In this document: one piece after another, positions 24,267 to 41,862 of the stretch
Layout: each line of letters opens with the position of its first letter
Numbering within the stretch: position 1 is the first letter of the stretch
Virus record (IMG/VR): IMGVR_UViG_3300045988_061855
Length of the DNA stretch: 64,000 nucleotides
Strand: one strand, 5' to 3'
Source of the DNA: a virus
Notes under the pieces: generated by a model
Told to the model about the DNA's origin: nothing
Database searches by the model: none
Seen by the model: only the letters and a program-made list of their open reading frames with translations
Program-made: the position numbers and the translations under genes

Positions 24267-24269
24267 GCG

Positions 24270-24543: not shown

Positions 24544-24731
24544 TAAAATATATTAATGAGATGTGTGAAAAATACAAGTGTGATATTCAGTTAACTTTCA
24601 AATTATATGGGGAATTACGAATAGTTGTCGTGGCAAACGGGCATATGGATTATTTGATGATTGATTCAAATACCGACGAAAATACTGTGAAAAAAAGTAT
24701 CGAAGATACAATAAGGAGGTGCTTACAATGA
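24540..24731 (+). CDS. hypothetical protein
   Basis: 63 aa with an AGGAGA RBS. Confidence 0.65.
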   Translation: MIKYINEMCEKYKCDIQLTFKLYGELRIVVVANGHMDYLMIDSNTDENTVKKSIEDTIRRCLQ

Positions 24732-24806
24732 TATTTATAATTCATAATACATAATCTTAAATATGACACTGATGAGAAATATTTTGAAGAATTGGAGGAA
24801 ACGTGA

Positions 24807-24995
24807 ATGATTAAAATTATTAAGCCTGGAACAATAACAGAATTGAGATGCTATAAATGCGGATGCTTATTCAGTTATGAAAAAGAAGATATAGAAATTA
24901 AAAAAGTGAATATATCAGATCCTTTATCTACGCAATATAAATATATAACTTGCCCACAGTGTAAAAAGGAAATAACATTGGAGGCTACGAGATGA
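24807..24995 (+). CDS. zinc-ribbon protein, paralog of 24084..24266
   Basis: MIKIIKPGTITELRCYKCGCLFSYEKEDI...CPQCKKEITL. Confidence 0.7.
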   Translation: MIKIIKPGTITELRCYKCGCLFSYEKEDIEIKKVNISDPLSTQYKYITCPQCKKEITLEATR

Positions 24996-25387
24996 TTAAA
25001 TTAGAAGGTAGAGTTCTATTATTTGATGTGATCAATCAACTCTCTAATAAAATATCTAAAGATTGTAAACTTACTATGCCCGAAAAAGTTCCTTTGACTT
25101 GGAATTTTGAGCATGATAAACCTATTGGATTTGCTACGCCAATCAGAGATAATAAGGGCATTTATGCCACAGCAGAAACATTTTCCAATGAATATATTGG
25201 CATCGAAGATATCCGGGATATTCTTACAGATGGAAAGATTGGTGTTGGTGGATACTATAGTATAAATAAAAGGCACAACGAAGGAGAACTAGACATCATT
25301 GATGAAGCAACATTACTAGATATTGGACTAACTTTGGCGCCGGTTCGTGAAGAATATTATTTTAAAATTATGGAGGAAAAGAAATGA
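24992..25387 (+). CDS. hypothetical protein whose N-terminal block resembles a prohead-protease (S78/U35) N-terminus
   Basis: 131 aa. VPLTWNFEHDKPIGFATPIRDNKGIYATAE compares with VPLVWNHEHNDPNAVLGHAVLENRKDGVYAYG in the capsid-protease fusion at 41855. Confidence 0.6.
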   Translation: MIKLEGRVLLFDVINQLSNKISKDCKLTMPEKVPLTWNFEHDKPIGFATPIRDNKGIYATAETFSNEYIGIEDIRDILTDGKIGVGGYYSINKRHNEGELDIIDEATLLDIGLTLAPVREEYYFKIMEEKK

Positions 25388-25639
25388 TTAAATTAGAGCA
25401 TGTAGTTCTGGCAAGTCCGGAGCAGATGGAGTTTATTATTGAGGGTATGCGAAACCCTATGAATTCATGGGAGAAAGGAGACAGTAAACTGGCGACCGCT
25501 GGATATGACGTTGTCGGGTTCGATCTTGGAGACGCTGATCTCGCTCTGATGCGGCGACTCTCCAAAGCAGGTACTGACCATAGAAAATTCATGCGAATGA
25601 TTCCGGTGTATGTGAGAATCACTGCGCCGTTGTATTGGT
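25384..25639 (+). CDS. ThyX-like (flavin-dependent thymidylate-synthase-like) phage protein, exon 1
   Basis: Ends ...HRKFMRMIPVYVRITAPLYW plus the first base of the next Trp codon. The apparent TAG at 25639 is created by the intron. Confidence 0.65.
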
Positions 25640-25686
25640 AGTTCTTTCTGCCAATGAAACACTTTGCCTAGTTATTGCTAGGGGTC

Positions 25687-25721
25687 ACGCTAAATTTACA
25701 TCTCCTATAATGAAAGGAGTG
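25687..25721 (+). promoter_or_regulatory. conserved early-region element, copy K (inside the intron)
   Basis: acgctaaatttacatctcctataatgaaaggagtg. Confidence 0.45.
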
Positions 25722-25727
25722 ATTTAT

Positions 25728-25922
25728 ATGATAGCTAGAATGGCATTAACAATCAACATTAATTCCAAAAAAGGCAAATATTTTGTGAAGCAGATGTTAC
25801 CTAAATGTAAACATATGGTAACTATCAGATCAAGCAAAGTCTTAGATGGATATACTGATTATATAATGGACATTGAAGATTATTATATAGCACAAGAATT
25901 ATTAGAAAAGATTGAGTCCTAA
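25728..25922 (+). CDS. intron-borne hypothetical protein (64 aa)
   Basis: ATG at 25728 follows AAAGGAGTG. No homing-endonuclease motifs are visible. Confidence 0.55.
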   Translation: MIARMALTININSKKGKYFVKQMLPKCKHMVTIRSSKVLDGYTDYIMDIEDYYIAQELLEKIES

Positions 25923-25940
25923 CATGGGCTCTTTCTTTTT
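25914..25940 (+). terminator. rho-independent terminator (GAGTCCT-aaca-TGGGCTC)
   Basis: The hairpin overlaps the stop codon of 25728..25922. Confidence 0.6.
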
Positions 25941-26296
25941 ATATTTTAGCGTGGCTAACGGGGAACCACCCATTGGAATCCCGTGGGAAACATTTCAAAG
26001 ATATATTTTCGCGAAAATTACATGGTGTATTATGAGAGAATAAGGCCCGTGGAATTAAAAATATTAACCACAATTCTAGGGTGACTAGTAACGGTGGAGA
26101 TTCTATTAGAATCGTAGTTAGGCAAGATCCTTATTCTTTTTTGTTTTTATTTCTTTTATATTTTTGAAATGAACCTGTAGAGGCTATCCCCTATGCCTTC
26201 CGGGCGGGGGAGTAGGGCTACTATTGATACGTAGCTGGGTTTTAGGAAACGAAGCCCATGAAAACCGAAATGGTGTCCTATTGTTTTTTGTGTGTT

Positions 26297-26333
26297 AGCG
26301 AGATTTACAACTCCTTTTATGAAAGGATGGTGA
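26297..26333 (+). promoter_or_regulatory. conserved early-region element, copy L (inside the intron)
   Basis: agcgagatttacaactccttttatgaaaggatggtga. Confidence 0.45.
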
Positions 26334-26338
26334 TATTT

Positions 26339-26563
26339 ATGTTTAATTTTTTTAAGAAAAAAGTCAGAGAAGAGGACCCAATATTGAAGGAGATAAACCA
26401 ACAAACTGAAGAATTAAAAGCTATAACCGATTCTATGCGTAGAGATAACGAATCATTAGAAGCTGATATTCAAATTGCGGAAAAATTATTACTCAATAGG
26501 GGATACTCACAAGAGGATTTGGAAAAATTAAAAATAAAATCGAAACTCAAAATAGTTAAGTAA
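26339..26563 (+). CDS. intron-borne coiled-coil protein (74 aa)
   Basis: ATG at 26339: MFNFFKKKVREEDPILKEINQQTEELKAITDSMRRDNESLEADIQ.... Confidence 0.55.
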   Translation: MFNFFKKKVREEDPILKEINQQTEELKAITDSMRRDNESLEADIQIAEKLLLNRGYSQEDLEKLKIKSKLKIVK

Positions 26564-26573
26564 AAATTAGGGG

Positions 26574-26608
26574 AAGACTCAGAGTAAAATCTTGGTCTTT
26601 TCTCTTTT
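26574..26608 (+). terminator. hairpin plus T-rich run
   Basis: AAGACTCAG-N8-CTTGGTCTT. Confidence 0.4.
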
Positions 26609-26653
26609 GTATTTAACACACAAAAAACAATAGTAAAAGATAGTCCATTAATG

Positions 26654-27135
26654 GGAAAGAATTTGATACTTATAAAGTTGGTACTGTTGCGAACTCTTGC
26701 AGTACAATGCACAAGATTGCTGAGAAAGAGTTTACACTGGAGGATTTCTCTACGGAGCATCTGATGACCTGGAATGACGATTTCACAGCGGATTGCGTTA
26801 TTGATTATGGACATTCTCCTGACGGTTATCCTTCTGGTAAAGTTCCCATGGATATTTTAGGCAACACTATTAAGATGCTAAATGAAGCTAGGGATAAATA
26901 TTTAAACTTTTCGTCTTTAAATGTTAATACTGAAAATGCTAAAAAAGATATTTGGTGGCAGATGATCCAGCTTCTTCCGAGCAGCTATAACCAGACACGC
27001 AACGTTATGATGAATTATGAGGTGCTGACAAACATATATAAGTCTCGCAAAGACCACAAGCTGGACGAATGGAGAGAGTTCTGTAAGTGGATTGAAACTT
27101 TACCTTATAGTGAATTAATTATCGGAGGTGAATAA
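26654..27135 (+). CDS. ThyX-like phage protein, exon 2
   Basis: The frame is open from 26644. (W)KEFDTYKVGTVANSCSTMHKIAEKEF...RKDHKLDEWREFCKWIETLPYSELI. Exons 1 and 2 together are 738 nt, giving 245 aa. Confidence 0.65.
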
Positions 27136-27140
27136 ACATA

Positions 27141-27398
27141 ATGACTTTTGATGATTTGATAGTCATCACACCAAATGTAAGATTAGCTGATTTAATACAG
27201 CTATTTTTATTAGGATATGATGATAAAATATACTTTGATGTGGAGATCAATAGCGGAAATGATGTTATTACGCTAGATAATGTGCGCATAATAGCACCAG
27301 AGTTACAACCCTATTACGACTATAAGATCGCATATCTTGGTGAACCTGATTATGAATCGCATGCTAATTTAGAGGTAACATTAAAAAGAGTGGTATAA
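27141..27398 (+). CDS. hypothetical protein
   Basis: 85 aa with a GGAGGTG RBS. Confidence 0.7.
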   Translation: MTFDDLIVITPNVRLADLIQLFLLGYDDKIYFDVEINSGNDVITLDNVRIIAPELQPYYDYKIAYLGEPDYESHANLEVTLKRVV

Positions 27399-27562
27399 AT
27401 GACCACTATATTTTTAATATTATTAATCATTCGCACAATTAGTTTGCAATTGGGACGTTTATATTTATGATATGTGTATCTATTAGCTATGATATAGCGA
27501 CGTCAGATTTACAAGACAGATTTAAGTTCTGGTTACTTTCAAATTAAGGAGGATTTTACATT

Positions 27563-27919
27563 ATGACAACGCACAATAAATATGACAATGATATTTTAAA
27601 GCAACTTACAAGGATTGCTAACGCTTTAGACAGGATAGCTAAGAGATTACCAGAAGAATGTGATACAGCTGAGTACGCAAAAGAGAATCCAGATTGGACT
27701 GAGAAAATTGAAAAGATGGCTTCTGGTTATTATTTACAGGTAATAAGATGTAAAGACTGTAAATGCTTCATACCATTGGAAGATATGAAAAAATGCCCGG
27801 AATACAAGGATTACCCATTTGATGCAGCAGAAAAAGTACATTCTGATGGTATATGTACAAATACTGATAAATGGGTTTACACAAGTGATTTCTGTAGTGA
27901 GGCTAAAAACTCGCAGTAA
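27563..27919 (+). CDS. Cys-rich hypothetical protein
   Basis: 118 aa, following the conserved TAAGGAGGATTTTACATTATG region. Confidence 0.75.
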   Translation: MTTHNKYDNDILKQLTRIANALDRIAKRLPEECDTAEYAKENPDWTEKIEKMASGYYLQVIRCKDCKCFIPLEDMKKCPEYKDYPFDAAEKVHSDGICTNTDKWVYTSDFCSEAKNSQ

Positions 27920-27945
27920 AAACATGTTCCTTAATGAGTAAATTA
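27911..27945 (+). promoter_or_regulatory. conserved early-region element, copy M
   Basis: tcgcagtaaaaacatgttccttaatgagtaaatta; overlaps the upstream stop codon. Confidence 0.5.
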
Positions 27946-27966
27946 TAATCTAAGGAGGAATTAATT

Positions 27967-28161
27967 ATGACATCAGAAGAAAGAATTGATGAACTTGAAA
28001 AGAGGGTTCGTATTATGGAAATGAAAAATGATAATCTGGGAAAGCGTTTAGACATCATGTCTGAGCAATTACAGATTGTTAATATTTCGTTAGTTCAAAT
28101 ATACGGCATTCTTGACCTTCAGGATAAAATCAATCGTATTAACATGATGACTAAACAGTAG
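27967..28161 (+). CDS. coiled-coil hypothetical protein
   Basis: 64 aa with a TAAGGAGG RBS. Confidence 0.7.
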   Translation: MTSEERIDELEKRVRIMEMKNDNLGKRLDIMSEQLQIVNISLVQIYGILDLQDKINRINMMTKQ

Positions 28162-28178
28162 TAATTTATTAAAGCAAA

Positions 28179-28212
28179 GGGCTTGAGTCTTAGGACTTAG
28201 GCTCTTATTTTT
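28179..28212 (+). terminator. rho-independent terminator (third copy of the 3189 hairpin)
   Basis: aaagcaaagggcttgagtcttaggactt is shared with 3181-3208. Confidence 0.7.
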
Positions 28213-28234
28213 TATATTTAGGAGGTAATATTCA

Positions 28235-28387
28235 ATGATGACACAGGAACAGATGGAAATTGAAATCATGAAGTTAAAAATGGAAAACAACGAGATTAAG
28301 GAGATTATATTAGAAATGCAGCAGCAAATAAAAGAGACAGTCAGTTTACTTGAGCAGGTAGCTGTCTTAATGACTTCGAGAAAGTAG
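28235..28387 (+). CDS. small coiled-coil protein (50 aa)
   Basis: Hand-read: TAGGAGG RBS, MMTQEQMEIEIMKLKMENNEIKEIILEMQQQ.... Confidence 0.5.
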   Translation: MMTQEQMEIEIMKLKMENNEIKEIILEMQQQIKETVSLLEQVAVLMTSRK

Positions 28388-28396
28388 GCAATTAGT

Positions 28397-29026
28397 ATGA
28401 AAAAGAAAACAACAAAATTTATATTATTAGGATTAATGATTTCGGTTATTGCATTCGCTTTAACTGGCTGTGAAATGTTTAACAGTGGCGTACAGTCAAT
28501 GAAAGGAAGTATTGAAGGAAATGAATATTTAGCTGAATTTTATACCAATAACGGTGAAAAATTCATGACTATGCATGGTGAGCGTATAGACCTTAATGCT
28601 AACACCGTAAGAGAATATGATTATGCTGAGGGTGGTTATAACAAAGTACAGTCATCAGTTGTAACAATCACCATAGACGGTAAAGAAGTGGAAAACTGTG
28701 GAAGTACAGTGATATTTGCAGAGGAAGGACTTGAGCCGGATGTAGACTTAGAGCAGCAGGATATTGAAAGTAATAGTACCGGGAATATAGGGGAACTTCC
28801 AATCGTAGCAAATACGATTAATCGTTATAAGAATATGCTTGGTAAATCAAGAACAGTAGTAATTCAATCACAACTTGGCGACCCAATATGTGCATATTCA
28901 GGAGATAGCGTTTATTACGAAGTTTGTGAGAAGTTACCTAAAACTACAAAGTTATCAATAGATGGTAAGGCTTTATATATTCATAGAGCCAACTTTCAGA
29001 TTATTGATAATAGTTTGTTGGATTGA
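28397..29026 (+). CDS. secreted lipoprotein
   Basis: MKKKTTKFILLGLMISVIAFALTGC, a signal peptide with lipobox LTGC. Confidence 0.8.
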   Translation: MKKKTTKFILLGLMISVIAFALTGCEMFNSGVQSMKGSIEGNEYLAEFYTNNGEKFMTMHGERIDLNANTVREYDYAEGGYNKVQSSVVTITIDGKEVENCGSTVIFAEEGLEPDVDLEQQDIESNSTGNIGELPIVANTINRYKNMLGKSRTVVIQSQLGDPICAYSGDSVYYEVCEKLPKTTKLSIDGKALYIHRANFQIIDNSLLD

Positions 29027-29044
29027 TAAGAAAGGATATTAACT

Positions 29045-29185
29045 ATGGCAAAGATATTATTAAGTGAGAGCGATATGAAAGCTCTTAATAATGGCGAGAT
29101 TGTAAGTGCTATGATTTATGGATATTTAATTGGTATTCAGAAAGACACTAGAAAACCAGAGAAGGCTAAAGAAGAGGAGGAGTAA
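29045..29185 (+). CDS. small hypothetical protein (46 aa)
   Basis: Hand-read: MAKILLSESDMKALNNGEIVSAMIYGYLIG.... Confidence 0.45.
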   Translation: MAKILLSESDMKALNNGEIVSAMIYGYLIGIQKDTRKPEKAKEEEE

Positions 29186-29189
29186 TGTT

Positions 29190-29552
29190 ATGGCATATAT
29201 TATGAATATTAATATACAGGCCGATGAGGACATACAATATATTCTTAGAAATATAAAAAAATCAGATACAGGAGCTTATGTTTTTATGTCTGATAATAGA
29301 GAATCACTCATAAATATTTTTTGTGAGATACTACGCGATATTAATGAGACAATATATACAAGCAATAAATCATTGGATTTAATAAAAATAAAAGGGTTCG
29401 TATCAGAGGCGTATACAGATATATCGTTAGATTGCAACACCGACAAGTATTCATATGAGTTAAATTATGATGATTTTTCAATAAGTTTTAAATTAACTAG
29501 CATAAATGTATTTACTATCTATAGCGATATTATTCAAATTAAGGAGGAATAA
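29190..29552 (+). CDS. hypothetical protein (120 aa)
   Basis: ATG at 29190 follows GAGGAGGAG. Confidence 0.65.
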   Translation: MAYIMNINIQADEDIQYILRNIKKSDTGAYVFMSDNRESLINIFCEILRDINETIYTSNKSLDLIKIKGFVSEAYTDISLDCNTDKYSYELNYDDFSISFKLTSINVFTIYSDIIQIKEE

Positions 29553-29556
29553 TGTT

Positions 29557-29778
29557 ATGTCTGATATCAAAAAATGTGATAGATGTGGAAAAACATACGA
29601 GTATGATTTTTCTGATAAGCCCACGGATACTGAAACGAGATATCTAACTACCATTACTTTGAATGCAAAAGATTTGTGGAAACGTGAGTATCATAAAACT
29701 TATGACTTGTGTGCCGACTGCTGTGTGTCTTTAATGGAATGGTTAAATTTTGATATGGCTGAAGAAAGGAAAGACTAA
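29557..29778 (+). CDS. zinc-ribbon protein (73 aa)
   Basis: ATG at 29557 follows AAGGAGG. Contains CDRCGK...CADCC. Confidence 0.65.
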   Translation: MSDIKKCDRCGKTYEYDFSDKPTDTETRYLTTITLNAKDLWKREYHKTYDLCADCCVSLMEWLNFDMAEERKD

Positions 29779-30023
29779 TGATATGCGATTGGAATGAAGT
29801 ATTTAACCCTACTCCTGAACAGAAAAAATATTATGAAGACGAATATAAAAAACTATTACAAAGCGCATATGACGAGCATAAATGTTTTACATGTAGACAT
29901 TATATTTCTGATGAACCTGAGCGAGACTTTATTCAACCTTGTCCAACATGTGAGATTACTGGTCATGCTGCTATTACAACTTGTGATAAATATGAGAGCA
30001 ACGGTAAGGAGGAAATACATTGA
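29778..30023 (+). CDS. Cys-rich hypothetical protein
   Basis: 81 aa with CFTC...CPTC motifs. Confidence 0.65.
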   Translation: MICDWNEVFNPTPEQKKYYEDEYKKLLQSAYDEHKCFTCRHYISDEPERDFIQPCPTCEITGHAAITTCDKYESNGKEEIH

Positions 30024-30134
30024 AAGAGAAGCTTAATTTATATTTTACAGTAAAGGCTTTGAAATATCGTTTTGAGCCTGCTGGGTTTAGATATCGTTTG
30101 TACTCTTGGCTTGTCAGAAAGACTGACTAACATA

Positions 30135-30166
30135 CGCGACATATACTTATTATATTATGAGAAAAT
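30135..30166 (+). promoter_or_regulatory. conserved early-region element, copy U (divergent)
   Basis: cgcgacatatacttattatattatgagaaaat. Confidence 0.35.
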
Positions 30167-30185
30167 AATAAGGAGGATTTATATT

Positions 30186-30326
30186 ATGCTTACATTTATG
30201 TTTGATAGTGTTGAAGAATTAGTTAAATTCAGGGAGGAATGTATTGAAAAATACAATGAGGTTCCTAGAATTTCAGCGGTTTTTCATGGCAACGAACATA
30301 CATATTTTGCAAGGGTTAATATGTAG
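30186..30326 (+). CDS. small hypothetical protein (46 aa)
   Basis: ATG at 30186 follows the conserved AAGGAGGATTTATATTATG region. Confidence 0.55.
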   Translation: MLTFMFDSVEELVKFREECIEKYNEVPRISAVFHGNEHTYFARVNM

Positions 30327-30390
30327 TAATTATTAAAAGAAATGTTCTTGGCATTTGCTGAGGCTTTTCTTTTTGCTCTGTCGGATATGG

Positions 30391-30428
30391 TCGTGTGAGA
30401 TACATAGTGTGTTATGGAAAGGATGGTG
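30391..30428 (+). promoter_or_regulatory. conserved early-region element, copy N
   Basis: tcgtgtgagatacatagtgtgttatggaaaggatggtg. Confidence 0.4.
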
Positions 30429-31944: not shown

Positions 31945-31963
31945 GCTTATGGTATTAATTATG

Positions 31964-31998
31964 CGAGCGTAAAAAACATGCCCTTTTATAGGAGAGAT
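31964..31998 (+). promoter_or_regulatory. conserved early-region element, copy O (last copy)
   Basis: cgagcgtaaaaaacatgcccttttataggagagat. Confidence 0.5.
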
Positions 31999-32032: not shown

Positions 32033-32070
32033 TACTCAGGTGACCTTCGGGCCCTGGGTCTTTTTATTTT
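32033..32070 (+). terminator. strong hairpin with UUCG loop plus T-run, between element O and the nuclease/RNAP genes
   Basis: ACTCAGG-tGaCC-ttcg-GGgC-CCTGGGT followed by CTTTTTATTTTT. Confidence 0.6.
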
Positions 32071-32100
32071 TGTGACTAAATAATTGAGAGGAGAATAGTT

Positions 32101-32394
32101 ATGAAAAAAGAAAGTGAATTCCAGGCAAGTCTTAAGAAAGAATTAAAAAAGATGTTTCCTGGATGTATTGTGACCAAATTGGATGCTGGTTGCATTCAAG
32201 GAATACCAGACCTACTTATTCTGTATGGAAAGCATTGGGCTACACTTGAAAATAAGAGAAGTGCTAATGCAAAGAAAAGACCTAATCAGGATTTTTATGT
32301 CAATAAGATGAATGATATGTCGTTTTCCAGATTTATATATCCAGAGAATAAGGAGGAAGTATTGAATGAACTTCGTAAAGCATTTGAATCTTGA
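32101..32394 (+). CDS. VRR-NUC / PD-(D/E)XK nuclease (Holliday-junction-resolvase-like)
   Basis: 97 aa. EFQ...GIPDLLILYGKHWATLENKRS fits the E...PD...ExK motif. Confidence 0.65.
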   Translation: MKKESEFQASLKKELKKMFPGCIVTKLDAGCIQGIPDLLILYGKHWATLENKRSANAKKRPNQDFYVNKMNDMSFSRFIYPENKEEVLNELRKAFES

Positions 32395-32920
32395 AGGATT
32401 GCATGCACCATTTAGTGCAAGTCAATCGGCATGGCTGCGATATTCTGATGATAAAGCAATTGCTGTTTATAGAAAAAAGAAAGCAGCAGAGATGGGAACC
32501 AGACTTCATGCATGGGCTAAAGACACAATTGATCTAGGTATCAAGCAGGCAAGGAGCAATAAAACACTATGTGCATATGTCAATGATGCAATTGGTTTTA
32601 GAATGGACACTGAAGTAGTTTTATATTATTCAGATTATTTCTTTGGAACAGCAGATGCTATATCTTTTAATAAAAATGTATTGAGAATACATGATTTAAA
32701 AACTGGCGATTCAGGACATATGGAACAGCTTATGGTTTATGCTGCGTTGTTCTGTTTGGAATACAGAGTGAAGCCTGGTGATATTAGGATAGAGCTTCGT
32801 CTTTATAAAAATGATGAGGTCGAAGTATTTAATCCTACAGCAGAAGATATTTTACCAATCATGGATAAGATTGTTAGTCTTAATAAAATTATGGAAGAAA
32901 TTGACGAGGGGGTAAGATAA
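32366..32920 (+). CDS. PD-(D/E)XK (RecB/Cas4-like) exonuclease
   Basis: 184 aa with an AAGGAGG RBS. Contains GTRLHAW..., FGTADAI and LRIHDLKTG...QLMVYA. Confidence 0.65.
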   Translation: MNFVKHLNLEGLHAPFSASQSAWLRYSDDKAIAVYRKKKAAEMGTRLHAWAKDTIDLGIKQARSNKTLCAYVNDAIGFRMDTEVVLYYSDYFFGTADAISFNKNVLRIHDLKTGDSGHMEQLMVYAALFCLEYRVKPGDIRIELRLYKNDEVEVFNPTAEDILPIMDKIVSLNKIMEEIDEGVR

Positions 32921-32921
32921 T

Positions 32922-35813
32922 ATGAATTCAGTAGCAGAAGAGATTCTTTCCTATATTGGAAGTCAAGCATTCAGCGAAGAAGAATTTCTTGCTCATTATG
33001 GAATGCCTCGTCGAAGTGGAAGATATCCATGGGGCTCGGGAGAGGAGCCATTTCAACATAGTGGAGATTTCTTATCAAGAGTTGAAGAGATGAGAAAATC
33101 TAAGTTTACTTATACTGATGAAGATGGCGTAAAATGGACTGGTGACAATGCAATAGCTAAATCTCTTGGGTACACTTCAAGTGATTTTAGAACTGTATGT
33201 GCCATCGCTAATAATGAGCGTAGGGCTGTAAAAGTTGCCGCCGCTAAAGCATTAAAAGAAAAAGGATTTAATGCAACTGAAATTGGTAGGCAGATGGGAA
33301 TTAACGAATCGTCTGTTAGGTCTTTACTCGATGAAAAAGCAGAAGAGAGAATGAACCAGGCTAGAGCAACTGCTGATTTTTTAAAGGAACAAGTTGATAA
33401 AAAGAAAATGATAGATGTTGGTTCAAAAGCCAACCTTGAATTAAATGTTTCTAAAGAGAAAATGGATCAGGCTCTTTATATGTTGCAGGCAGAAGGTGGT
33501 TATGAAATCTGGGGAAATAGATTTCCACAGGCAACTAATAAAGGACAGTTGACAACTCAGAAGGTTCTGTGTGTTCCTGGAACACCACACAGTGCCATAT
33601 ATGATTTTGGTAAGGTTCAGACTATTGGCGATTATATTACTAGAGACGATGGAAAAACATTTGAAAAGAAGTTTCATTATCCTGAGAGTTTGAACTCTAA
33701 GCGTCTTGAAATCTGTTATGCAGAAGATGGGGGTATAAAGAAAGATGGTCTTATTGAACTTAGAAGGAATGTCCCAGATCTTTCATTAGGAGAGTCTCGA
33801 TATTCTCAGGTTCGTATTATGGTGGATGGTAAGAAATACATAAAAGGAATGGCAGTATATGCTGATGATTTACCAGAAGGCATAGACGTTAGATTTAACA
33901 CCAATAAATCAAATAAATTATCTAAGCTGGAATGTCTCAAGGATGTTAAGAGCGACCCAGACAATCCTTTTGGAGCCCTCATCAAAGAAGAAGGCGGACA
34001 GTATTGGTATACAGATTCAAAGGGTAAAAAGAAGCTTGGATTAATTAATAAAACAAGAGAAGAAGGAGAATGGGAAGAATGGAAAGATTCTTTACCATCT
34101 CAGTTCTTGTCAAAACAGAATAAGGTATTAGCTGAGAAACAGCTAGGAATTGCCAAGGCAGATAAGCAGTCTGAGTTTGATGACATAATGGCATTGAACA
34201 ATCCTACTATTAAAAAATATTATCTTGATAAATTTGCATCATCATGCGACTCAGCAGCAGTGCATTTACAGGCAGCTGCGTTGCCAGGTCAGAAGTATCA
34301 CGTAATATTACCATTAACTACAATGAGTGATAGAGAAGCTTATGCTCCTGATTATGCTGATGGAACTAAACTTGCATTGGTAAGATTCCCACATGGTGGA
34401 ACATTTGAAATACCTATAGTTACTGTTAATAATAGAAATAAAGAAGCTATTAAGATGATTGGTAAGTCTTCAACAGATGCCATAGGTATTAACGCTAATG
34501 TCGCAGGAAGATTATCGGGTGCAGATTTTGATGGCGATACTGTTATGTGTATTCCAACCCATGATAGGGGCGGAAAAGTAAAAATTACATCTACTCCAGA
34601 ATTAAAAGACTTAGAGGGATTTGATCCTAAGCTTAATTATGGTGGCGAATGTAGAAAAGATAGTGATGGTAAAGAACATTATTATCGTAATGGTAGAGAG
34701 TATCGCCTGATGACAAAGACCGATACTGAGATGGGAAAAATTTCTAATCTTATTACTGATATGACCCTGATAGGTGCAACTGAAGATGAGCTTGCAAGAG
34801 CAGTAAAACATTCAATGGTTGTTATCGATGCAGAGAAACATCATCTGGATTATAAGCAGAGTGAGCTTGATAATAACATTGTTGCACTTAAGAAGAAGTA
34901 TCAGGGGAAAGCTCAAGGCGGAGCAGCTACAATTATCTCACAATCAAAAGGTGAGTATGATGTAGATAAAAGACAGGGTACTCCTCGTACTAATCTTAAG
35001 CGTAACGAGTATAAGAATAATCCAGAAAAGGGAGACATTTGGTATGACCCAAGTCGACCTGAAGGTGCCCTTCTCTACAAGAAAGCTGACGATGCTGACT
35101 ATCAGATAACCAAGGTTGATAAGAGAACTGGTGAGGTAACCACTATTACTAAAACCCGCCAACAGAAGAGTACTAAGATGGCCGAGACAGATGATGCCAA
35201 TACACTGGTATCTACTCATCGCCATCCTATGGAATTAGTGTATGCTGATTATGCTAATGCAATGAAAGATATGGCTAACAAGGCTAGAATTGCTATAGCA
35301 GATGCAGGTAAGGTTGCATACAGTAGGGAGGCTAAGAGTAAGTATGAGGTGGAGGTAAAATCTCTTTTAGAAAAACTTAATAATGCTGAAAAGAATGCCG
35401 TTAGAGAGAGAGCCGCACAGAGAATTGCTAATGCCAACATAAATGAGAAATTAGAAGCTAATCCTGACATGAAAGCTAAAGATAAAAAGAAAGTTTCTCA
35501 GCAGGCTTTAAGTAAGGCAAGACTTGAAGTTGGTTCTGTTAAGAGACGAGATAGAAACATAGTAATCACTGATAATGAATGGGAAGCTATTCAGGCAGGT
35601 GCTGTGAGTGAAACGATTCTTAAACGAATACTGAATAATTCAGACCCAGATTCGTTGAGAGCAAAGGCAATGCCTAAAGAATCATCAGCATTATCAGATG
35701 CTAAGATAGCCAGAATTAAAGCTATGTCTGCTTCATACACAATTGCACAGATAGCTGATAAACTTGGCTATTCAACATCAACAATTTCTAAAGCTTTGAA
35801 AGGAGGAAATTAA
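32922..35813 (+). CDS. single-subunit two-barrel (double-psi beta-barrel) RNA polymerase, YonO/beta-prime-like
   Basis: LVRFPHGG at aa 486-493 and SGADFDGDTVMCIP at aa 532-545 (nt 34521..34538 encode ADFDGD) match the beta-prime pattern RxPxxH...NADFDGDQMAVH. GKKYIKGMAVYADDLPEG at aa 303-320 resembles the beta-subunit motif GDKxxxRHGNKGV...EDMP. HTH-like segments occur at aa ~116-136 and ~936-958. The N-terminal HYGMPRRSGRYPWGSGE is a WG motif. Confidence 0.75.
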   Translation: MNSVAEEILSYIGSQAFSEEEFLAHYGMPRRSGRYPWGSGEEPFQHSGDFLSRVEEMRKSKFTYTDEDGVKWTGDNAIAKSLGYTSSDFRTVCAIANNERRAVKVAAAKALKEKGFNATEIGRQMGINESSVRSLLDEKAEERMNQARATADFLKEQVDKKKMIDVGSKANLELNVSKEKMDQALYMLQAEGGYEIWGNRFPQATNKGQLTTQKVLCVPGTPHSAIYDFGKVQTIGDYITRDDGKTFEKKFHYPESLNSKRLEICYAEDGGIKKDGLIELRRNVPDLSLGESRYSQVRIMVDGKKYIKGMAVYADDLPEGIDVRFNTNKSNKLSKLECLKDVKSDPDNPFGALIKEEGGQYWYTDSKGKKKLGLINKTREEGEWEEWKDSLPSQFLSKQNKVLAEKQLGIAKADKQSEFDDIMALNNPTIKKYYLDKFASSCDSAAVHLQAAALPGQKYHVILPLTTMSDREAYAPDYADGTKLALVRFPHGGTFEIPIVTVNNRNKEAIKMIGKSSTDAIGINANVAGRLSGADFDGDTVMCIPTHDRGGKVKITSTPELKDLEGFDPKLNYGGECRKDSDGKEHYYRNGREYRLMTKTDTEMGKISNLITDMTLIGATEDELARAVKHSMVVIDAEKHHLDYKQSELDNNIVALKKKYQGKAQGGAATIISQSKGEYDVDKRQGTPRTNLKRNEYKNNPEKGDIWYDPSRPEGALLYKKADDADYQITKVDKRTGEVTTITKTRQQKSTKMAETDDANTLVSTHRHPMELVYADYANAMKDMANKARIAIADAGKVAYSREAKSKYEVEVKSLLEKLNNAEKNAVRERAAQRIANANINEKLEANPDMKAKDKKKVSQQALSKARLEVGSVKRRDRNIVITDNEWEAIQAGAVSETILKRILNNSDPDSLRAKAMPKESSALSDAKIARIKAMSASYTIAQIADKLGYSTSTISKALKGGN

Positions 35814-35815: not shown

Positions 35816-36088
35816 ATGACTAAAGTATCTAATGATTGTAGATTGACTACATTTGACAATCCTTACAATCCATTTACACAGTTTGCTGAATGGTTGTTGT
35901 TTGACAATTCAAAAGATTACTTTACATTAAACAAACTTGCTAGAATTGAACAAGTTGATGAAAGTATGTCTGAGAATGAAATAAACATTGAACATGAAAG
36001 AGCAATTGATGAAATTATACAGAACGATTTCCTCAACATCTATAAAAAAGTGTACAGAAATGAAGAAATAAATGAACAGATCGCATGA
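35816..36088 (+). CDS. hypothetical protein
   Basis: 90 aa with a GGAGGA RBS. Confidence 0.7.
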   Translation: MTKVSNDCRLTTFDNPYNPFTQFAEWLLFDNSKDYFTLNKLARIEQVDESMSENEINIEHERAIDEIIQNDFLNIYKKVYRNEEINEQIA

Positions 36089-37490: not shown

Positions 37491-38024
37491 ATGGAACAGA
37501 ATGAATTAATGCATTACGGAGTTATGGGAATGAAATGGGGTATTAGAAGAGCCGCTTCCAAGAGTTCCCAAAACAATAAATTAGAATTGAAAGCCTTGAA
37601 ATATGATAAGAAAGCAGCAATCCAATCAAAAAAATCAGAAAATGCACATTCTAAGAATGATCTTGGTACAGCGAATAAGAAGGCTAAAAAAGCAAACGAA
37701 TATTTGAAGAAAGCTGCTAAATTACAGACTAAAGCATTAAAAACAGACAATGACATAAAGCGAAGTAATTTAGAGAAAAAAGCGGAAACCCTAAAGTATA
37801 AATCAGCAAAAAAAAACATAGACGCAGACAGGATTTCAAAACTAACTGGATATGGTTATAAGGCTATGCAGTATTCTGTTAAATCAGATAAATTTAAAAA
37901 GAAAGCAGCAAAAGCACGAATGATGATTTCCAGTAATAACAGATACATTACAATGATGAATCATCGTGTTAGTACGTTGCCAAAAGATAAACAGGAATTA
38001 GCGATGAAGTACCTGGGTAAATAG
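37491..38024 (+). CDS. Lys-rich basic protein with N-terminal HYGVxGMKWG motif
   Basis: MEQNELMHYGVMGMKWGIRRAAS, followed by a K/A-rich helical body. Confidence 0.7.
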   Translation: MEQNELMHYGVMGMKWGIRRAASKSSQNNKLELKALKYDKKAAIQSKKSENAHSKNDLGTANKKAKKANEYLKKAAKLQTKALKTDNDIKRSNLEKKAETLKYKSAKKNIDADRISKLTGYGYKAMQYSVKSDKFKKKAAKARMMISSNNRYITMMNHRVSTLPKDKQELAMKYLGK

Positions 38025-38034: not shown

Positions 38035-38823
38035 ATGGAAAACGAATTATACCATCATGGCGTCCTAGGTCAGAAATGGGGCGTAAGAAGATACCAGAAT
38101 AAAGATGGAAGTCTTACTATGGCTGGAAAGAAGCGTGCATTGCGAATCCAGAACGACTATACAGAACTTACTAATAATAAGAAGTATAGAGACCGTAATG
38201 GTAATATGACATATGCTGGTCGTAAAAAGGCTCTTGCTTTACAGAATGAATATACAAATGTTACTGGTAAAAAACACCTTATAGCATTTAATAACAAGAC
38301 TGGTGCAGGCAAGCAGACTCATCAGAAGAGCGTTAGTGAGATGAGTAATCAGGAATTGCAGGCAAAGGTTGATAGACTTCGATTAGAGAAGCAATTAAAA
38401 GACCTTACGCCAGAACATAAAACAGCTGGTCAGAAATTTGTCGACTTTGTCAAGGATACATCAATGTCCATAATTAAGGATAAGGGAACTAGAATACTTG
38501 GTGATTATGTCGATAAGCAGGTTCGAGATGCTATAGGACTTAATAAGAAAGACCCATTAACCAAGTCTCAGAAACTTGCTCAGGATGCCAAAGATGCGGC
38601 AAACAAGAAAGTAATTGCTCAGGTTGAAGATTACTTTAAAGAGCGAGATAAAGGCAAGAATACAGCAACTGAGACTAAGAAAGATTCTGGATATACTATG
38701 ACAGAAGCTCAGAAGAAAGAACATGATGCATTATTTGGTAATCATGAAACAAAAACTGAATCAGATGCTGAAAAGCGCAAAAGAGAACATGACCGATTGT
38801 TCTCAGGAAGATATGTAGATTAA
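38035..38823 (+). CDS. basic protein with N-terminal HHGVLGQKWG motif and an internal tandem repeat
   Basis: MENELYHHGVLGQKWGVRRYQNKDGSLTMAGKKRALRIQNDYTELT, then a repeat DRNGNMTYAGRKKALALQNEYTNVT. Confidence 0.7.
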   Translation: MENELYHHGVLGQKWGVRRYQNKDGSLTMAGKKRALRIQNDYTELTNNKKYRDRNGNMTYAGRKKALALQNEYTNVTGKKHLIAFNNKTGAGKQTHQKSVSEMSNQELQAKVDRLRLEKQLKDLTPEHKTAGQKFVDFVKDTSMSIIKDKGTRILGDYVDKQVRDAIGLNKKDPLTKSQKLAQDAKDAANKKVIAQVEDYFKERDKGKNTATETKKDSGYTMTEAQKKEHDALFGNHETKTESDAEKRKREHDRLFSGRYVD

Positions 38824-38832: not shown

Positions 38833-40596
38833 ATGGCGTTATCGAATACAGCCACACCGATTTATTATGGCAGGTTTCGAGATGCCGTAATTAGAGGCGA
38901 AATACCAGTATGCGAGGAAATTTCTATGGAGATGAATCGTATAGATGCTCTTATAGCAAATCCTGGTGTATGGTATGACGATAAAGCGGTAAATGGCTTT
39001 ATAAAATATTGTGAGAGTGAACTTACATTAACCAATGGCGATGATTTATTTCTTCTCGATTCATTTAAGCTGTGGGCTGAGGAAATTTTTGGTTGGTATT
39101 ATTATATAGAACGAAGTATTTATGTACCAGACAAAGATAATCATGGCGGACATTACGAGAAGAAAATCATAAGAAAAAGGCTCATAAATAAGCAGTATTT
39201 AATCGTTGCCAGAGGTGCAGCTAAGTCAATGTATGCGTCGTGCATACAAAATTATTTCTTGAATGTAGATACATCTACATCTCATCAGATAACAACAGCC
39301 CCAACAATGGCTCAGGCAGAAGAGGTTATGTCACCTTTTAGAACAGCCATAACAAGAGCCAGAGGTCCATTATATCAATTCTTAACAGAAGGCTCATTGC
39401 AGAACACGACAGGCTCAAAGGCTAATCGTGTAAAGTTGGCAAGTACCAAGAAAGGAATACAGAATTTCCTCACAGGTTCGTTATTAGAAGTAAGACCTAT
39501 GTCAATAGATAAATTGCAGGGATTACGAGTTAAAGTAGCTACCGTCGATGAATGGCTCTCCGGCGATGTTAGAGAAGATGTTGTTGAGACACTTGAACAG
39601 GGAGCTGCAAAGGAACAGGGTGGCGGACAGAATGACGATTATTTGATAGTCGCCATTAGTTCTGAAGGTACTGTTCGTAATGGTTCTGGCGATACAATCA
39701 AAATGGAGCTAATGAAAATCCTTAAGGGAGAACATAATGCTCCTCATACATCTATTTTCTGGTACAAGCTCGACAGCATTGATGAAGTAGGTGACCCGTC
39801 TAAGTGGCCCAAAGCCAATCCTAATCTGGATAAGACTGTCACATATGAGACATATCAAGAAGCGGTCGAAACAGCTGAAAAAAATCCTGCTAAGAGAAAC
39901 GATATACTTGCAAAGCGATTCGGACTTCCGATGGAAGGTTATACATATTACTTTACATATGAAGAAACTCTTCCACATAGAAAGAAAGAATTTTGGCAGA
40001 TGCCTTGTGCGTTGGGAGCAGACCTTTCTCAAGGCGACGATTTCTGTGCTTTTACATTTCTATTTCCGTTATCCAGCGGTTCATTCGGAGTTAAAACCCG
40101 TAACTATATAACAGAATTAACATTAAAAAAACTACCTTTGGCTCTTAGGAATAAATATGAAGAGTTCATTAATGAAGGTAGTCTTATTGTTATGCCTGGA
40201 AATATCTTAGACATGATGCAGGTTTATGATGATTTGGATGAATTCATAATTCGAACCGCTTATGACGTAAGATGCTTCGGTTATGACCCATATAATGCTA
40301 AAGAGTTTGTGGAACGATGGGAACGAGAAAATGGAGCATACGGAATAGAAAAAGTTATACAGGGGGCTAAGACTGAATCTGTACCGTTAGGAGAGTTAAA
40401 GAAATTAGCTGAAGAAAGAATGTTGTTGTTCGACGAGGGGTTGATGACATTCACAATGGGAAATTGTATCACCATCGAAGATACCAATGGTAATCGTAAA
40501 TTATATAAAAACAGATATGATGCCAAGATTGACGCTGTGGCTGCAATGATGGATGCATTTGTAGCATATAAGCACAATCGTGAGGCTTTTGAGTAG
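38833..40596 (+). CDS. terL: terminase large subunit
   Basis: 587 aa. It has a Walker A-like VARGAAKS and a Walker B-like VATVDEW. The C-terminal nuclease region contains GADLSQGDDFCAF. The position upstream of the portal fits. Confidence 0.85.
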   Translation: MALSNTATPIYYGRFRDAVIRGEIPVCEEISMEMNRIDALIANPGVWYDDKAVNGFIKYCESELTLTNGDDLFLLDSFKLWAEEIFGWYYYIERSIYVPDKDNHGGHYEKKIIRKRLINKQYLIVARGAAKSMYASCIQNYFLNVDTSTSHQITTAPTMAQAEEVMSPFRTAITRARGPLYQFLTEGSLQNTTGSKANRVKLASTKKGIQNFLTGSLLEVRPMSIDKLQGLRVKVATVDEWLSGDVREDVVETLEQGAAKEQGGGQNDDYLIVAISSEGTVRNGSGDTIKMELMKILKGEHNAPHTSIFWYKLDSIDEVGDPSKWPKANPNLDKTVTYETYQEAVETAEKNPAKRNDILAKRFGLPMEGYTYYFTYEETLPHRKKEFWQMPCALGADLSQGDDFCAFTFLFPLSSGSFGVKTRNYITELTLKKLPLALRNKYEEFINEGSLIVMPGNILDMMQVYDDLDEFIIRTAYDVRCFGYDPYNAKEFVERWERENGAYGIEKVIQGAKTESVPLGELKKLAEERMLLFDEGLMTFTMGNCITIEDTNGNRKLYKNRYDAKIDAVAAMMDAFVAYKHNREAFE

Positions 40597-40608: not shown

Positions 40609-41862
40609 ATGGAGTTATCTATTACTGATAGAATGAAGCACGCATTTAATGCGTTTATGAATCGAGACCCTACAGCTTATTATAATAGGAATCTTGGTTC
40701 TAGTTATTCCATACGACCCGACCGACCGAGATTAAGTCGTGGAAATGAGCGTTCAATTATTACTGCAATATTCAATCGAATAGCGATGGATGTGGCAGCA
40801 ATAGATATAACACATTGCAGATTGGATGAGAACAATCGATTCATAGAAAAAATCGATTCCGGACTCAACAATTGTTTGAATCTGGAAGCAAATGTAGACC
40901 AGAGTGGACGAGCATTTATACAGGATGCAGTTATGTCTATGTTAGATGAGGGTGTGGTTGCGCTTGTTCCAGTTGACACTGATTTGAATCCAGCAAGCAC
41001 TGATTCATATGACATACTTACAATGAGAACTGGAAAGATTCTTGAATGGTATCCAGCACATGTCAAAGTAAGGCTTTACAATGACCGTACTGGAGAGAAA
41101 GAAGACCTTATGCTGGCTAAGCGAGACGTGGCAATTATTGAAAATCCATTATTTGCCATAGTCAATGAGCCTAATTCAACGATGCAGCGACTTATGAGAA
41201 AATTAAGTTTACTAGATGTGACAGATGAACAAACGGCATCAGGAAAGCTGGATTTAATCATTCAGTTGCCGTATGTAGTCAAGTCAGAGGCTAGGCGTGA
41301 ACAGGCTAATCAGCGTCGAAAAGATATAGAACAACAGTTGGCAGAAGGTAAATATGGAATTGCATATACCGATGGTACCGAGAAAATCACTCAGCTTAAC
41401 CGTTCAGTAGAAAACAATCTCATGAAACAAGTCGAATACCTGACTAATATGGTATACAGTCAAATAGGCATTACCCAGTCAGTTTTAGACGGAACTGCTG
41501 ATGAAAAAACAATGCTTAACTATAACAACCGAACAGTCGAACCGATTGTATCGGCTATCGTTGATGAGCTGAAGCGTAAGTTCCTTACAAAAACAGCTCG
41601 TACTCAGCTGCAATCAATATCGTTCTTTAGAGACCCATTTAAACTGGTTCCAGTAAACGATATTGCTGAAATCGCAGATAAATTCACTAGAAATGAAATC
41701 ATGACTTCAAATGAAATTCGCCAGATTGTTGGAATGAAGCCTTCTAATGACCCTAAGGCGGACCAGCTTATTAATAGTAACATTAGTCAGGCTAAAGAAG
41801 ATAATGTTCCTAGTGAGGGAAATGAAGAATATGGAGAAGGAGGAAAAAGTCAAAATGAGTAA
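40609..41862 (+). CDS. portal protein
   Basis: 417 aa immediately after TerL, with an acidic C-terminus. The call is based on position and size. Confidence 0.7.
   Translation: MELSITDRMKHAFNAFMNRDPTAYYNRNLGSSYSIRPDRPRLSRGNERSIITAIFNRIAMDVAAIDITHCRLDENNRFIEKIDSGLNNCLNLEANVDQSGRAFIQDAVMSMLDEGVVALVPVDTDLNPASTDSYDILTMRTGKILEWYPAHVKVRLYNDRTGEKEDLMLAKRDVAIIENPLFAIVNEPNSTMQRLMRKLSLLDVTDEQTASGKLDLIIQLPYVVKSEARREQANQRRKDIEQQLAEGKYGIAYTDGTEKITQLNRSVENNLMKQVEYLTNMVYSQIGITQSVLDGTADEKTMLNYNNRTVEPIVSAIVDELKRKFLTKTARTQLQSISFFRDPFKLVPVNDIAEIADKFTRNEIMTSNEIRQIVGMKPSNDPKADQLINSNISQAKEDNVPSEGNEEYGEGGKSQNE

Follow-up and report, generated by a model that had tools for sequence, protein, structure and literature searches.

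A predicted single-chain two-barrel RNA polymerase, a promoter-like element and a shared N-terminal tag in a Lachnospira-type prophage

What is the function of the 963-residue protein encoded near the boundary between the early and late genes of virus record IMGVR_UViG_3300045988_061855, and how might the phage put it to use? We analyzed the 64,000-nucleotide (nt) stretch of DNA from this record (hereafter, the window), in which all genes lie on the + strand. An initial annotation, made from the letters alone, had read one open reading frame (ORF) as an RNA polymerase (RNAP) with both double-psi beta-barrels (DPBBs) in one polypeptide, a DxDGD metal loop and helix-turn-helix (HTH) segments at both ends. 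The ORF is present as described:

32922..35813, + strand: RNAP gene, 963 amino acids (aa), ATG start; from the ORF, a PHROG 4291 match, an AlphaFold2 model and Foldseek searches

Predicted structure together with fold search, invariant motifs and a published HHpred comparison support the core of that annotation. We propose that the gene encodes a single-polypeptide two-barrel RNAP with a QDE-1/RDR-like fold, an assignment supported by the structure models; RNA synthesis itself is a prediction. We consider it likely, with good confidence, that the protein acts as a DNA-dependent RNAP on phage genes, independently of a host sigma factor, in a temperate siphovirus with double-stranded DNA (dsDNA). 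The best overall explanation of the locus, and a probable one, is a DNA-dependent RNAP of PHROG 4291 that would use a 31-nt element of the early region and may be delivered by the virion.

Predicted fold and catalytic core

We modelled the protein with AlphaFold2 on an alignment of 80 homologs that are 45–75% identical to the query (hereafter, the family alignment), which is also the source of all columns called invariant here. The full-length model had a mean predicted local distance difference test score (pLDDT) of 80.2 and a predicted TM-score (pTM) of 0.69. Foldseek searches of the Protein Data Bank (PDB) with this model returned QDE-1 first (7y7s, 7y7r, 7y7t; E 1e-8 to 9e-8, probability 1.00, 950–997 aligned columns) and plant RDR2 next (E 8e-5 to 1e-3, probability 1.00), and the largest RNAP subunits of Pol II, Pol III, African swine fever virus (ASFV), mycobacteria and vaccinia virus matched it at non-significant E-values. 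A second model covered the core only (aa 255-665; pLDDT 74.9). Its top match was RDR2 (E 2e-4, query TM-score (TMq) 0.39–0.42, probability 1.00, ~450 columns), and it also matched the DPBB domains of p97/VCP-N and VAT-N (probability 0.97–1.00, root-mean-square deviation (rmsd) ~3.3 Å over ~97 residues) and the catalytic-barrel region of Pol IV NRPD1, poxvirus Rpo147 and Pol II Rpb1 (probability 0.9–0.97, rmsd 3–4.4 Å over 150–170 residues). Matches in BFVD comprised phage models labelled as RNA-dependent RNA polymerase (RdRP), RlpA-type DPBB domains, and HTH and sigma-70 region 4 proteins. In the models, ~700 of the 963 residues make up the polymerase fold. The core features are:

33705..34061, + strand: first beta-barrel region (DPBB-B), beta-subunit-like, aa 262-380; assigned by position
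34293..34565, + strand: catalytic barrel (DPBB-A), beta-prime-like, aa 458-548; from six strands and the fold matches of the core model
34383..34394, + strand: R488-F-P490-H491, the [RK]xP signature; invariant in the family alignment
34524..34538, + strand: D535-F-D537-G-D539, predicted Mg2+-binding catalytic loop; D535, D537, G538 and D539 invariant
34719..34841, + strand: two long helices, aa 600-640, candidate bridge-helix region; placed by position

All peptides that the initial annotation quoted occur in the ORF. Its catalytic segment consists of LVRFPHGG (aa 486-493) and SGADFDGDTVMCIPTHD (aa 532-548), so that the end is residue 548, not 545, a small slip; ADFDGD lies at nt 34521-34538 as claimed, and its three aspartates are D535, D537 and D539. 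The strands of the catalytic barrel are predicted at 458-464, 472-474, 483-487, 499-502, 520-523 and 540-545. P490 stands 44 residues before D535, a spacing that fits '[RK]xPx{20,100}DxDxD', the pattern used by Chaban et al. as a signature of two-barrel RNAPs. The invariant motif residues are R488, P490, H491, G492, G493, D535, D537, G538 and D539, together with K308, G309 and M310 of the first barrel region. The annotation had also named, as a result that would refute it, profile or structure searches without a DPBB fold around RFPH and ADFDGD; the structure searches found that fold there.

The first barrel region contains VDGKKYIKGMAVY, which holds the K308-G309-M310 triplet, and the beta-subunit-like segment proposed earlier, VDGKKYIKGMAVYADDLPEGIDV, is found at aa 301-323, 234 residues N-terminal to D535. 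The strands of the whole region are predicted at 262-265, 277-281, 294-301, 305-314, 323-326, 360-364 and 370-380, and its invariant basic residues are R261, R281, R298, K308, K329 and K340. Secondary structure, these basic residues and the whole-core alignment with RDR2 support a second, predicted DPBB at aa 262-380. The candidate bridge-helix region is modelled as helices 600-617 and 621-640 and is rich in invariant positions (G605, S608, N609, L610, I611, D613, M614, S631, M632, V633, I635, D636, A637, K639, H640). The two-barrel reading is thus supported because the AlphaFold models match QDE-1 and RDR2, the core model matches DPBB domains and RNAPs, and the R-x-P-H and D-x-D-G-D motifs are invariant.

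Sequence searches see the ends of the protein. An NCBIfam scan returned HTH families only, and searches of PDB sequences with the single protein and with the 80-sequence profile gave HTH matches only, the polymerase core being beyond the reach of HMMER.

The family itself is already known computationally, from PHROG 4291, RefSeq and one preprint. In a PHROGs scan the protein matched phrog_4291, 'RNA-dependent RNA polymerase', over its full length (E=0, 1176.5 bits; residues 18-961 against 7-907 of the 909 profile positions). Koert et al. (bioRxiv 10.1101/842583; 2021 preprint) described the protein as a signature gene of an actinobacteriophage supercluster and of the group of Lactococcus 1706 and Faecalibacterium FP_oengus, reported the DxDGD motif and HTH domains at both ends, and aligned the family with PF05183 by HHpred (probability 95.7%, 286 columns); the terminal HTHs are therefore not the undescribed feature that the initial annotation took them for. 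RefSeq labels homologs 'RNA-dependent RNA polymerase', and most SEA-PHAGES records call them 'helix-turn-helix DNA-binding protein'; we infer that 'RNA-dependent' merely echoes the Pfam family that the proteins resemble. Our literature search found no biochemical study of any PHROG 4291 member.

Using tblastn, we found matches in 251 GenBank phage records, 249 of them near full length, from phages of Arthrobacter, Gordonia, Streptomyces, Curtobacterium, Microbacterium, Rhodococcus, Lactococcus (1706, P078) and Faecalibacterium (FP_oengus); human-gut and saliva contigs were also among the matches. Large protein collections hold thousands of relatives: an exhaustive profile search gave 3487 clusters at 50% identity with E<=1e-3, at least 1205 of them at E<=1e-30, nearly all of similar length. 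A 99%-identical protein is recorded from Lachnospira eligens. Departures from the common length include members of 1045-1072 aa that bear PF13563 (P0161, P0170, P0177), others with N-terminal extensions of ~160 aa, and one of 1789 aa (P0365, P0251, P0259).

Terminal HTH modules and a shared N-terminal tag

Towards the ends of the protein lie three further features:

33231..33329, + strand: N-terminal HTH, aa 104-136, sigma-70 region-4-like; from Pfam, modelled helices and the family alignment
35709..35801, + strand: C-terminal HTH, aa 930-960; from Pfam HTH_23, modelled helices and BFVD
32988..33053, + strand: N-terminal tag LAHYGMPRRSGRYPWGSGEEPF, aa 23-44, predicted disordered; from invariant residues and low pLDDT

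The HTH-like segments that had been pointed out by eye, FNATEIGRQMGINESSVRSLL (aa 116-136) and YTIAQIADKLGYSTSTISKAL (aa 939-959), both fall within these modules. Helices of the N-terminal module are predicted at 118-125 and 129-136, and its recognition helix reads INESSVR, with E129, S130 and R133 invariant and ESSVR kept across phyla. In Pfam, Sigma70_r4 matched aa 113-136 with 22.5 bits (E 8e-5), just under the cut-off of 24.1, and HTH_28 matched the module with E 1.4e-4; many 70%-identical homologs carry precomputed PF04545/PF08281 matches. A structural match in BFVD to a sigma-70 region 4 protein had a probability of 0.99 and an E-value of 1.6. The C-terminal module matched HTH_23 at aa 930-960 with 32.7 bits, above the gathering score of 24.6, and is modelled as helices 926-935, 941-948 and 952-960.

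The most conserved peptide of the N-terminus is L-x-HYG-x2-R-x-SGRYPWGSG, in which H25, G27, S32, G33, R34, G38 and G40 are invariant and YPWGSG, the N-terminal WG motif of the initial annotation, occupies aa 35-40. Residues 11-45 have pLDDT below 50 and are predicted to be disordered. The initial annotation had the motif shared with proteins encoded near the terminase. This is real, but weak within the window, and becomes convincing through related genomes. Two neighbouring genes carry such N-termini in the window:

37491..38024, + strand: Lys-rich 177-aa protein with N-terminal DUF7211 tag MHYGVMGMKWGIRR, upstream of the terminase; DUF7211 38.6 bits, cut-off 27
38035..38823, + strand: Lys-rich 262-aa protein with N-terminal DUF7211 tag YHHGVLGQKWGVRR, immediately upstream of TerL; DUF7211 27.7 bits, cut-off 27

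Their N-termini read HYGVMGMKWG and HHGVLGQKWG, respectively. The RNAP N-terminus matched DUF7211 weakly (E 0.16), and a profile of the RNAP tag, run against the window proteome, found ORF 37491 as its best non-self match, weakly (10 bits). In gut phage MT835616.1, two Lys-rich proteins that flank TerL carry the RNAP-type tag, AHYGLPRRSGRYKWGSGKEPYQ and EHYGLPRRSGRYKYGSGKDPYQ, and in a regex scan the tag headed one to four proteins around TerL and portal in FP_oengus, 1706 and CapnMurica. In the record that the depositors made for 1706 (EU081845), the label 'structural protein' is given to ORF75, which is the RNAP, and to ORF7, which lies directly before TerL and has two copies of the tag, and the RNAP homolog of ReqiPepy6 is likewise noted as structural in its record.

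The tag occurs in two forms, HYG…KWG (DUF7211) and the longer RNAP-type HYGxPRRSGRYxWGSG, and small Lys-rich proteins near terminase and portal begin with it in every genome examined. Small tag-bearing proteins were seen at L026:1305-1898 and 3657-4214, in CapnMurica gp6, gp8, gp9 and gp10, in 1706 ORF7 and in FP_oengus gp69. In the early region of the window, the 320-aa product of ORF 21773-22735 combines DUF5662, an internal DUF7211 motif (25.1 bits, cut-off 27) and a C-terminal Ntox50 toxin domain, and it could be a phage-delivered toxin; in close relatives the DUF5662 protein and the DUF7211 protein are encoded by separate genes (L008:463-1002, 3059-3940).

The 31-nt element, gene context and possible mechanism

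If the protein is an RNAP, from which sequences would it transcribe? Repeat analysis and a pattern search delineated an element whose copies can be aligned gap-free over 31 nt, with the consensus TTTCGCG-N-AAATT-ACA-TGTCC-TTTTAT-GAGA. The last copy precedes the RNAP operon:

31963..31993, + strand: last element copy, GCGAGCGTAAAAAACATGCCCTTTTATAGGA, position weight matrix (PWM) score 31.3; 108 nt upstream of the VRR-Nuc/exonuclease/RNAP operon
within 1427..30419, + strand: the other 19 element copies by PWM, with starts at 1427, 1786, 2271, 2953, 3221, 3524, 3784, 4699, 5948, 14667, 17378, 18096, 20227, 25685, 26007, 26294, 27909, 30132 and 30389
32049..32071, + strand: short hairpin and T-run in the leader, GGGCCCTGGGTCT TTTTATTTTT; terminator-like match between the element and the ribosome-binding site (RBS) of the operon
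32101..32394, + strand: VRR-Nuc-type endonuclease, operon gene 1; phrog_93 E 1e-13, synteny
32366..32920, + strand: Cas4/RecB-like exonuclease, operon gene 2; phrog_3953 E 6e-71, synteny
35816..36088, + strand: 90-aa protein after the RNAP; phrog_4303 E 1e-28, following the RNAP in all relatives examined

All 20 PWM matches (>=12 bits) lie on the + strand between 1427 and 31993, in the early half, compared with 0–1 in shuffles; in the late half, the PWM and repeat analysis found no element copy and no other repeated motif. Most copies stand 10–30 nt before an RBS and ATG, often directly after a terminator of hairpin plus T-run, and the early region has more terminators of this kind than expected (19 vs 6.9 ± 2.2). 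The initial annotation had placed the RNAP gene right after the last early element; the element is there, yet the RNAP gene is the third gene downstream of it, translationally coupled to the exonuclease gene. Its location at the early/late boundary also holds in that it is the last conserved gene before the cohesive-end (cos)/late region, with the qualification that it belongs to a conserved operon and is not free-standing.

The geometry of the element is not sigma-A-like. A TTTACA-like box lies 5 nt from a -10-like hexamer, nothing resembling TTGACA lies 16–18 nt upstream, position -11 is mostly T in the present phage, and the most informative positions (CGC, ACA and C21) fall within the would-be spacer. 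A canonical sigma-70 promoter is thus disfavoured as a reading of the element: the box spacing is wrong, nothing like TTGACA stands at 16–18 nt, and the early region holds no excess of generic sigma-70 matches (80 vs 85 expected).

A non-circular scan, with a PWM trained on the window alone, found the architecture of the element in two distant relatives (shuffles 0–1 in both): FP_oengus has 13 + strand matches, all in the early region, and Arthrobacter phage CapnMurica has 8, which cluster where its early region begins, plus one ahead of the RNAP operon. In three of three phages (window, FP_oengus and CapnMurica) an element copy lies 85–125 nt upstream of the operon's VRR-Nuc gene, and the syntenic block is kept in nine phages of seven host genera, with the consensus CGCnnnAAAAACATGnnCTATAATAGAAGGGATAGAATA. 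Both the element and the invariant ESSVR helix thus follow the phage lineage from one bacterial phylum to another. The preprint of Koert et al. (bioRxiv 10.1101/842583) does not mention the element, and both leads, the promoter-like element and the shared tag, appear not to have been reported before.

Lactococcal phages carry a different repeat, GAAAAAACTTCGGGA, before the RNAP gene. Several repeat copies lie upstream of that gene in 1706 (CTATCACGAAAAAACTTCGGGAAAACTTCGGGATT; L005:2634-3086) and in P078 (CCCGGA/TTCGGGA-type; L024:700-1065). The leader of 70–110 nt between the element and the VRR-Nuc RBS (31994-32100, and at the same position in L016, L019, L020-L023 and L007) begins with a conserved stretch like AGAAGGGATAGAAT and ends in a hairpin and/or T-run, and similar T-rich leader ends occur in relatives; an attenuator or regulatory RNA is conceivable here.

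The order of the operon is conserved in every relative inspected (1706, FP_oengus, CapnMurica, GirlPower, Schwartz33, ReqiPepy6, Eevee and D_HF4_2). The ReqiPepy6 record annotates the 3' cos end right after the RNAP and small ORF, and the RNAP gene therefore lies at the right end of the linear virion DNA. Downstream of the operon in the window follow an HNH endonuclease, a connector, the two DUF7211 proteins, TerL, portal, a protease/capsid fusion, and tail and lysis genes, with an intact ORF (40609..41862) at the portal position after the terminase:

38833..40596, + strand: TerL; phrog_9 E 5e-108

Upstream lie the replication genes, which include a helicase and a 1380-aa primase-polymerase (10523..14665, phrog_4210). 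The window is an integrated prophage, nearly the whole of one of ~66 kb, carried by contigs of 200–430 kb and seen in many human-gut assemblies. Its left flank holds the host genes priA-def-fmt-rsmB-rlmN and a tyrosine integrase ~1.6 kb left of the window start; its right flank holds a host PP2C phosphatase (stp), a PASTA kinase (prkC), rsgA and rpe.

Other observations concern the window at large. After the RNAP operon, a G/C-rich inverted repeat, GAGGGGGGT…ACCCCCTCC, lies at 36108-36139, the position of the cos end in relatives, and a sigma-70-like match, TTTAGA-17-TATAAT, lies at 36199-36227 ahead of the late genes. An Rfam scan of the window found tRNA only: one tRNA (3815-3885; RF00005, 56 bits) follows a terminator-like hairpin and the element copy at 3784. 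Three early paralogs of phrog_2152/DUF6353 (3861-4697, 5188-5958 and 7760-8725) are triplicated in FP_oengus too (gp15, gp18 and gp22). The tape-measure gene (ORF 47753-54160) has 189-nt periodic repeats at 50945-51255 and 52503-53055, and ORF 46343-47365 has two 99-nt repeats (47076-47342) with a LysM-like peptide, GDTLSEIAARYNTTV…LNGIDNPDLIYPG, identified by eye.

We hypothesize that the RNAP would transcribe phage genes from the element TTCGCG-N6-ACATG-N3-T(A/T)T(A/T)AT-GAGA, which would head ~20 short early transcription units, the RNAP operon included, and that the built-in HTHs would read the upstream CGC and ACA boxes as sigma region 4 does for bacterial RNAP. That the 31-nt element is the promoter of this enzyme is a possibility that we hold tentatively. 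The tag could place the RNAP in the capsid beside the small basic proteins encoded near the terminase and portal, and the enzyme could then be ejected with the DNA and start early transcription upon infection; to us, the idea that the disordered HYG…WGSG tag directs the RNAP into the capsid for such ejection and early start seems evenly poised between right and wrong. Upon prophage induction, host RNAP would first have to transcribe the RNAP operon, for which it might use the TATAAT-like hexamer of the same element. A more ambitious version joins all of this in one self-contained machine: fused sigma-region-4-like HTHs reading a bipartite 31–40-nt promoter (CGC box, ACA box, TATAAT-GAGA), tag-mediated loading into the capsid, accompanied by small basic proteins and by toxin domains in some phages, then ejection and early transcription free of host RNAP, in phages that can be temperate. 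As a whole, that version is doubtful.

Several points count against the proposed polymerase and its mode of action. Global TM-scores to QDE-1 are low (0.26–0.30), as expected for a multidomain protein at ~10% identity, and the second barrel and the bridge helix are predictions assigned by position and secondary structure. PF05183, the RdRP family of Pfam, has no direct match to the RNAP, and hmmscan at E<=1 gives HTH families only; because that direct scan is negative while the published HHpred probability is 95.7%, the relation is remote and below the reach of HMMER. With its good TATAAT-like hexamer, the element could instead be a promoter for host sigma-A that carries phage-specific additions. 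Later PWM counts, which found no element match in ~17 kb of host DNA flanking the prophage and no enrichment in the SPbeta control or in phage 1706, are partly circular. Lactococcal members lack the element though 1706 retains the ESSVR helix, and with that combination the comparison of recognition helix and element gave no clean signal of co-variation. The virion association of RNAP homologs comes from record annotations. The phage is temperate, as its integrase and host flanks show, and early transcription therefore cannot depend solely on a virion-delivered enzyme; moreover, the RNAP gene stands behind its own putative promoter, so another polymerase must make the first molecules on induction.

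Three other explanations have to be weighed against a promoter-directed early RNAP. The enzyme might be a late transcriptase in the style of YonO or T7, unpackaged and made by host RNAP from the early/middle operon, which would transcribe the late structural operon (36.1-64 kb), the early elements being host sigma-A promoters. The location of the gene directly upstream of the terminase/portal late operon, like that of yonO in SPbeta, would suit this role, as would a temperate lifestyle like that of SPbeta, in keeping with de novo synthesis, the presence of a TATAAT-like hexamer in the element, and the position of the RNAP operon behind an element copy. However, neither the element nor another repeated motif was found in the late half, and the gap before the late genes has an ordinary sigma-70-like match (TTTAGA-17-TATAAT). 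Moreover, the linear virion DNA of relatives has its cos end between the RNAP gene and the late genes, and the homologs of 1706 and ReqiPepy6 are annotated as structural. Nor are the CGC and ACA boxes, fixed in spacing and common to phages of Clostridia and Actinobacteria, sigma-A contacts, and position -11 is mostly T. A late transcriptase would leave unexplained the confinement of the only conserved repeated element to the early half, its persistence across host phyla and the structural labels of homologs. We regard this reading, the main rival, as unlikely.

It is improbable, in our judgment, that the protein resembles QDE-1 in copying RNA or single-stranded DNA (ssDNA) instead of transcribing from promoters; such an enzyme might synthesize RNA on ssDNA ends or replication intermediates and work with the operon nucleases in priming, recombination or counter-defence. 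QDE-1 and RDR2 are the nearest solved structures, PMC9508822 attributes both RdRP and ssDNA-templated activities to QDE-1, and both DNA nucleases of the operon are strictly retained among relatives. Against this, the phage already has a primase-polymerase (10523..14665) and a helicase, and three HTH-type dsDNA-binding segments with a co-travelling promoter-like element favour promoter-directed transcription. The characterised phage members of the superfamily are DNA-dependent transcriptases: P23-45 gp64 and gp96 are such enzymes, and YonO and gp66 reportedly are as well. Least credible, and very improbable, is a DNA-binding transcription regulator whose polymerase-like core is no longer catalytic. 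Pfam and NCBIfam detect HTH domains only and most SEA-PHAGES records carry the HTH label, yet DxDGD, R-x-P-H and dozens of core residues are invariant in 80 homologs down to 45% identity, and ~700 of 963 residues lie in the polymerase fold; inactive relics are not known to retain an invariant catalytic loop across phyla.

The finding draws its value from the size of the family and from two leads that can be tested, the shared tag and the promoter-like element. Members are very common: they occur in 251 GenBank phage genomes, among them several SEA-PHAGES clusters and abundant human-gut prophages, and in >1200 clusters at 50% identity. The candidate promoter and packaging tag make these ideas testable in easily grown phages, for instance those of Arthrobacter, Gordonia and Streptomyces. 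Were the protein an active DNA-dependent RNAP that recognizes promoters through its own modules, it would be the simplest known two-barrel transcription system, would offer a compact orthogonal polymerase/promoter pair for Gram-positive hosts, and would add a further evolutionary link from phage enzymes to the eukaryotic RNA interference (RNAi) polymerases.

Comparison with known two-barrel polymerases

The closest kin are the other PHROG 4291 proteins (1706 ORF75, FP_oengus gp55, CapnMurica gp87, GirlPower gp78 and the ReqiPepy6 homolog), which are homologous over their full length at 34–57% identity and share the architecture of N-terminal tag, HTH, two barrels and C-terminal HTH. They also share the operon (VRR-Nuc, Cas4-like exonuclease, RNAP and small ORF) and its location just before the cos/late region. 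Most described members come from lytic phages, but the present copy resides in an integrated Lachnospira-type prophage; some relatives have a C-terminal 2'-5' RNA ligase-like domain (PF13563).

Outside its own family, the nearest relatives on the structure models are enzymes of the QDE-1/RDR2 type, not YonO or beta-prime, to which the initial annotation had likened the protein. QDE-1 of Neurospora and RDR2 of plants each combine two DPBB barrels and a DxDGD loop in one chain, as predicted for the phage RNAP, at ~10% sequence identity to it. Unlike the phage enzyme, they carry neither HTH modules nor the N-terminal tag, and their role is in silencing pathways, where they act on RNA or ssDNA, and not in the transcription programme of a phage.

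For YonO, we compared the family alignment with yonO of SPbeta and with a 41-member YonO alignment using hhalign. Neither comparison was significant (probability 2% for YonO alone; probability 0.7%, E 0.076, 77 columns for the YonO alignment), and we therefore do not assign the RNAP to the YonO family. The best alignment, itself non-significant, is in register, P464…LVRFPH…SGADFDGDTV against …LRSPH…LQFDNDGDKA, so that R-x-P-H pairs with R-S-P-H and D-F-D-G-D with DNDGD. YonO is a single-chain two-barrel RNAP of a temperate siphovirus with similar spacing of R-x-P-H and DxDGD, and its gene lies directly upstream of the late operon, like the RNAP gene of the window. It differs in its C-terminal Cys4 (C799, C802, C816 and C819, invariant in the YonO alignment), where the present RNAP ends in HTH_23, and in having neither the HYG…WGSG tag nor the nuclease operon. 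The likeness to YonO is at the level of the superfamily, not of the family.

Among single-subunit two-barrel phage enzymes, crAss gp66, P23-45 gp64 and P23-45 gp96 are recognised and have structures. As fold matches, gp66 (6VR4) was weak with the core model (E 0.24, probability 0.12), and P23-45 gp64/gp96 were not among the significant Foldseek matches of either model. The gp66 protein of crAss-like phage phi14:2 (PDB 6VR4) is a two-barrel enzyme that is packaged in the capsid and ejected, like the mode proposed here; it has ~2200 aa and comes from a podovirus, and packaging of the present RNAP is suggested by annotations and the shared tag. The virion RNAP of N4 is T7-like, not two-barrel, and is a functional analogue only. 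The P23-45 enzymes have no HTH modules, and the present RNAP has no tape-measure fusion of the kind seen in the virion protein gp96; together with the non-virion gp64, however, gp96 is a single-subunit two-barrel RNAP from a siphovirus, and both are placed in the same 'phage/plasmid/RNAi' clade of two-barrel polymerases.

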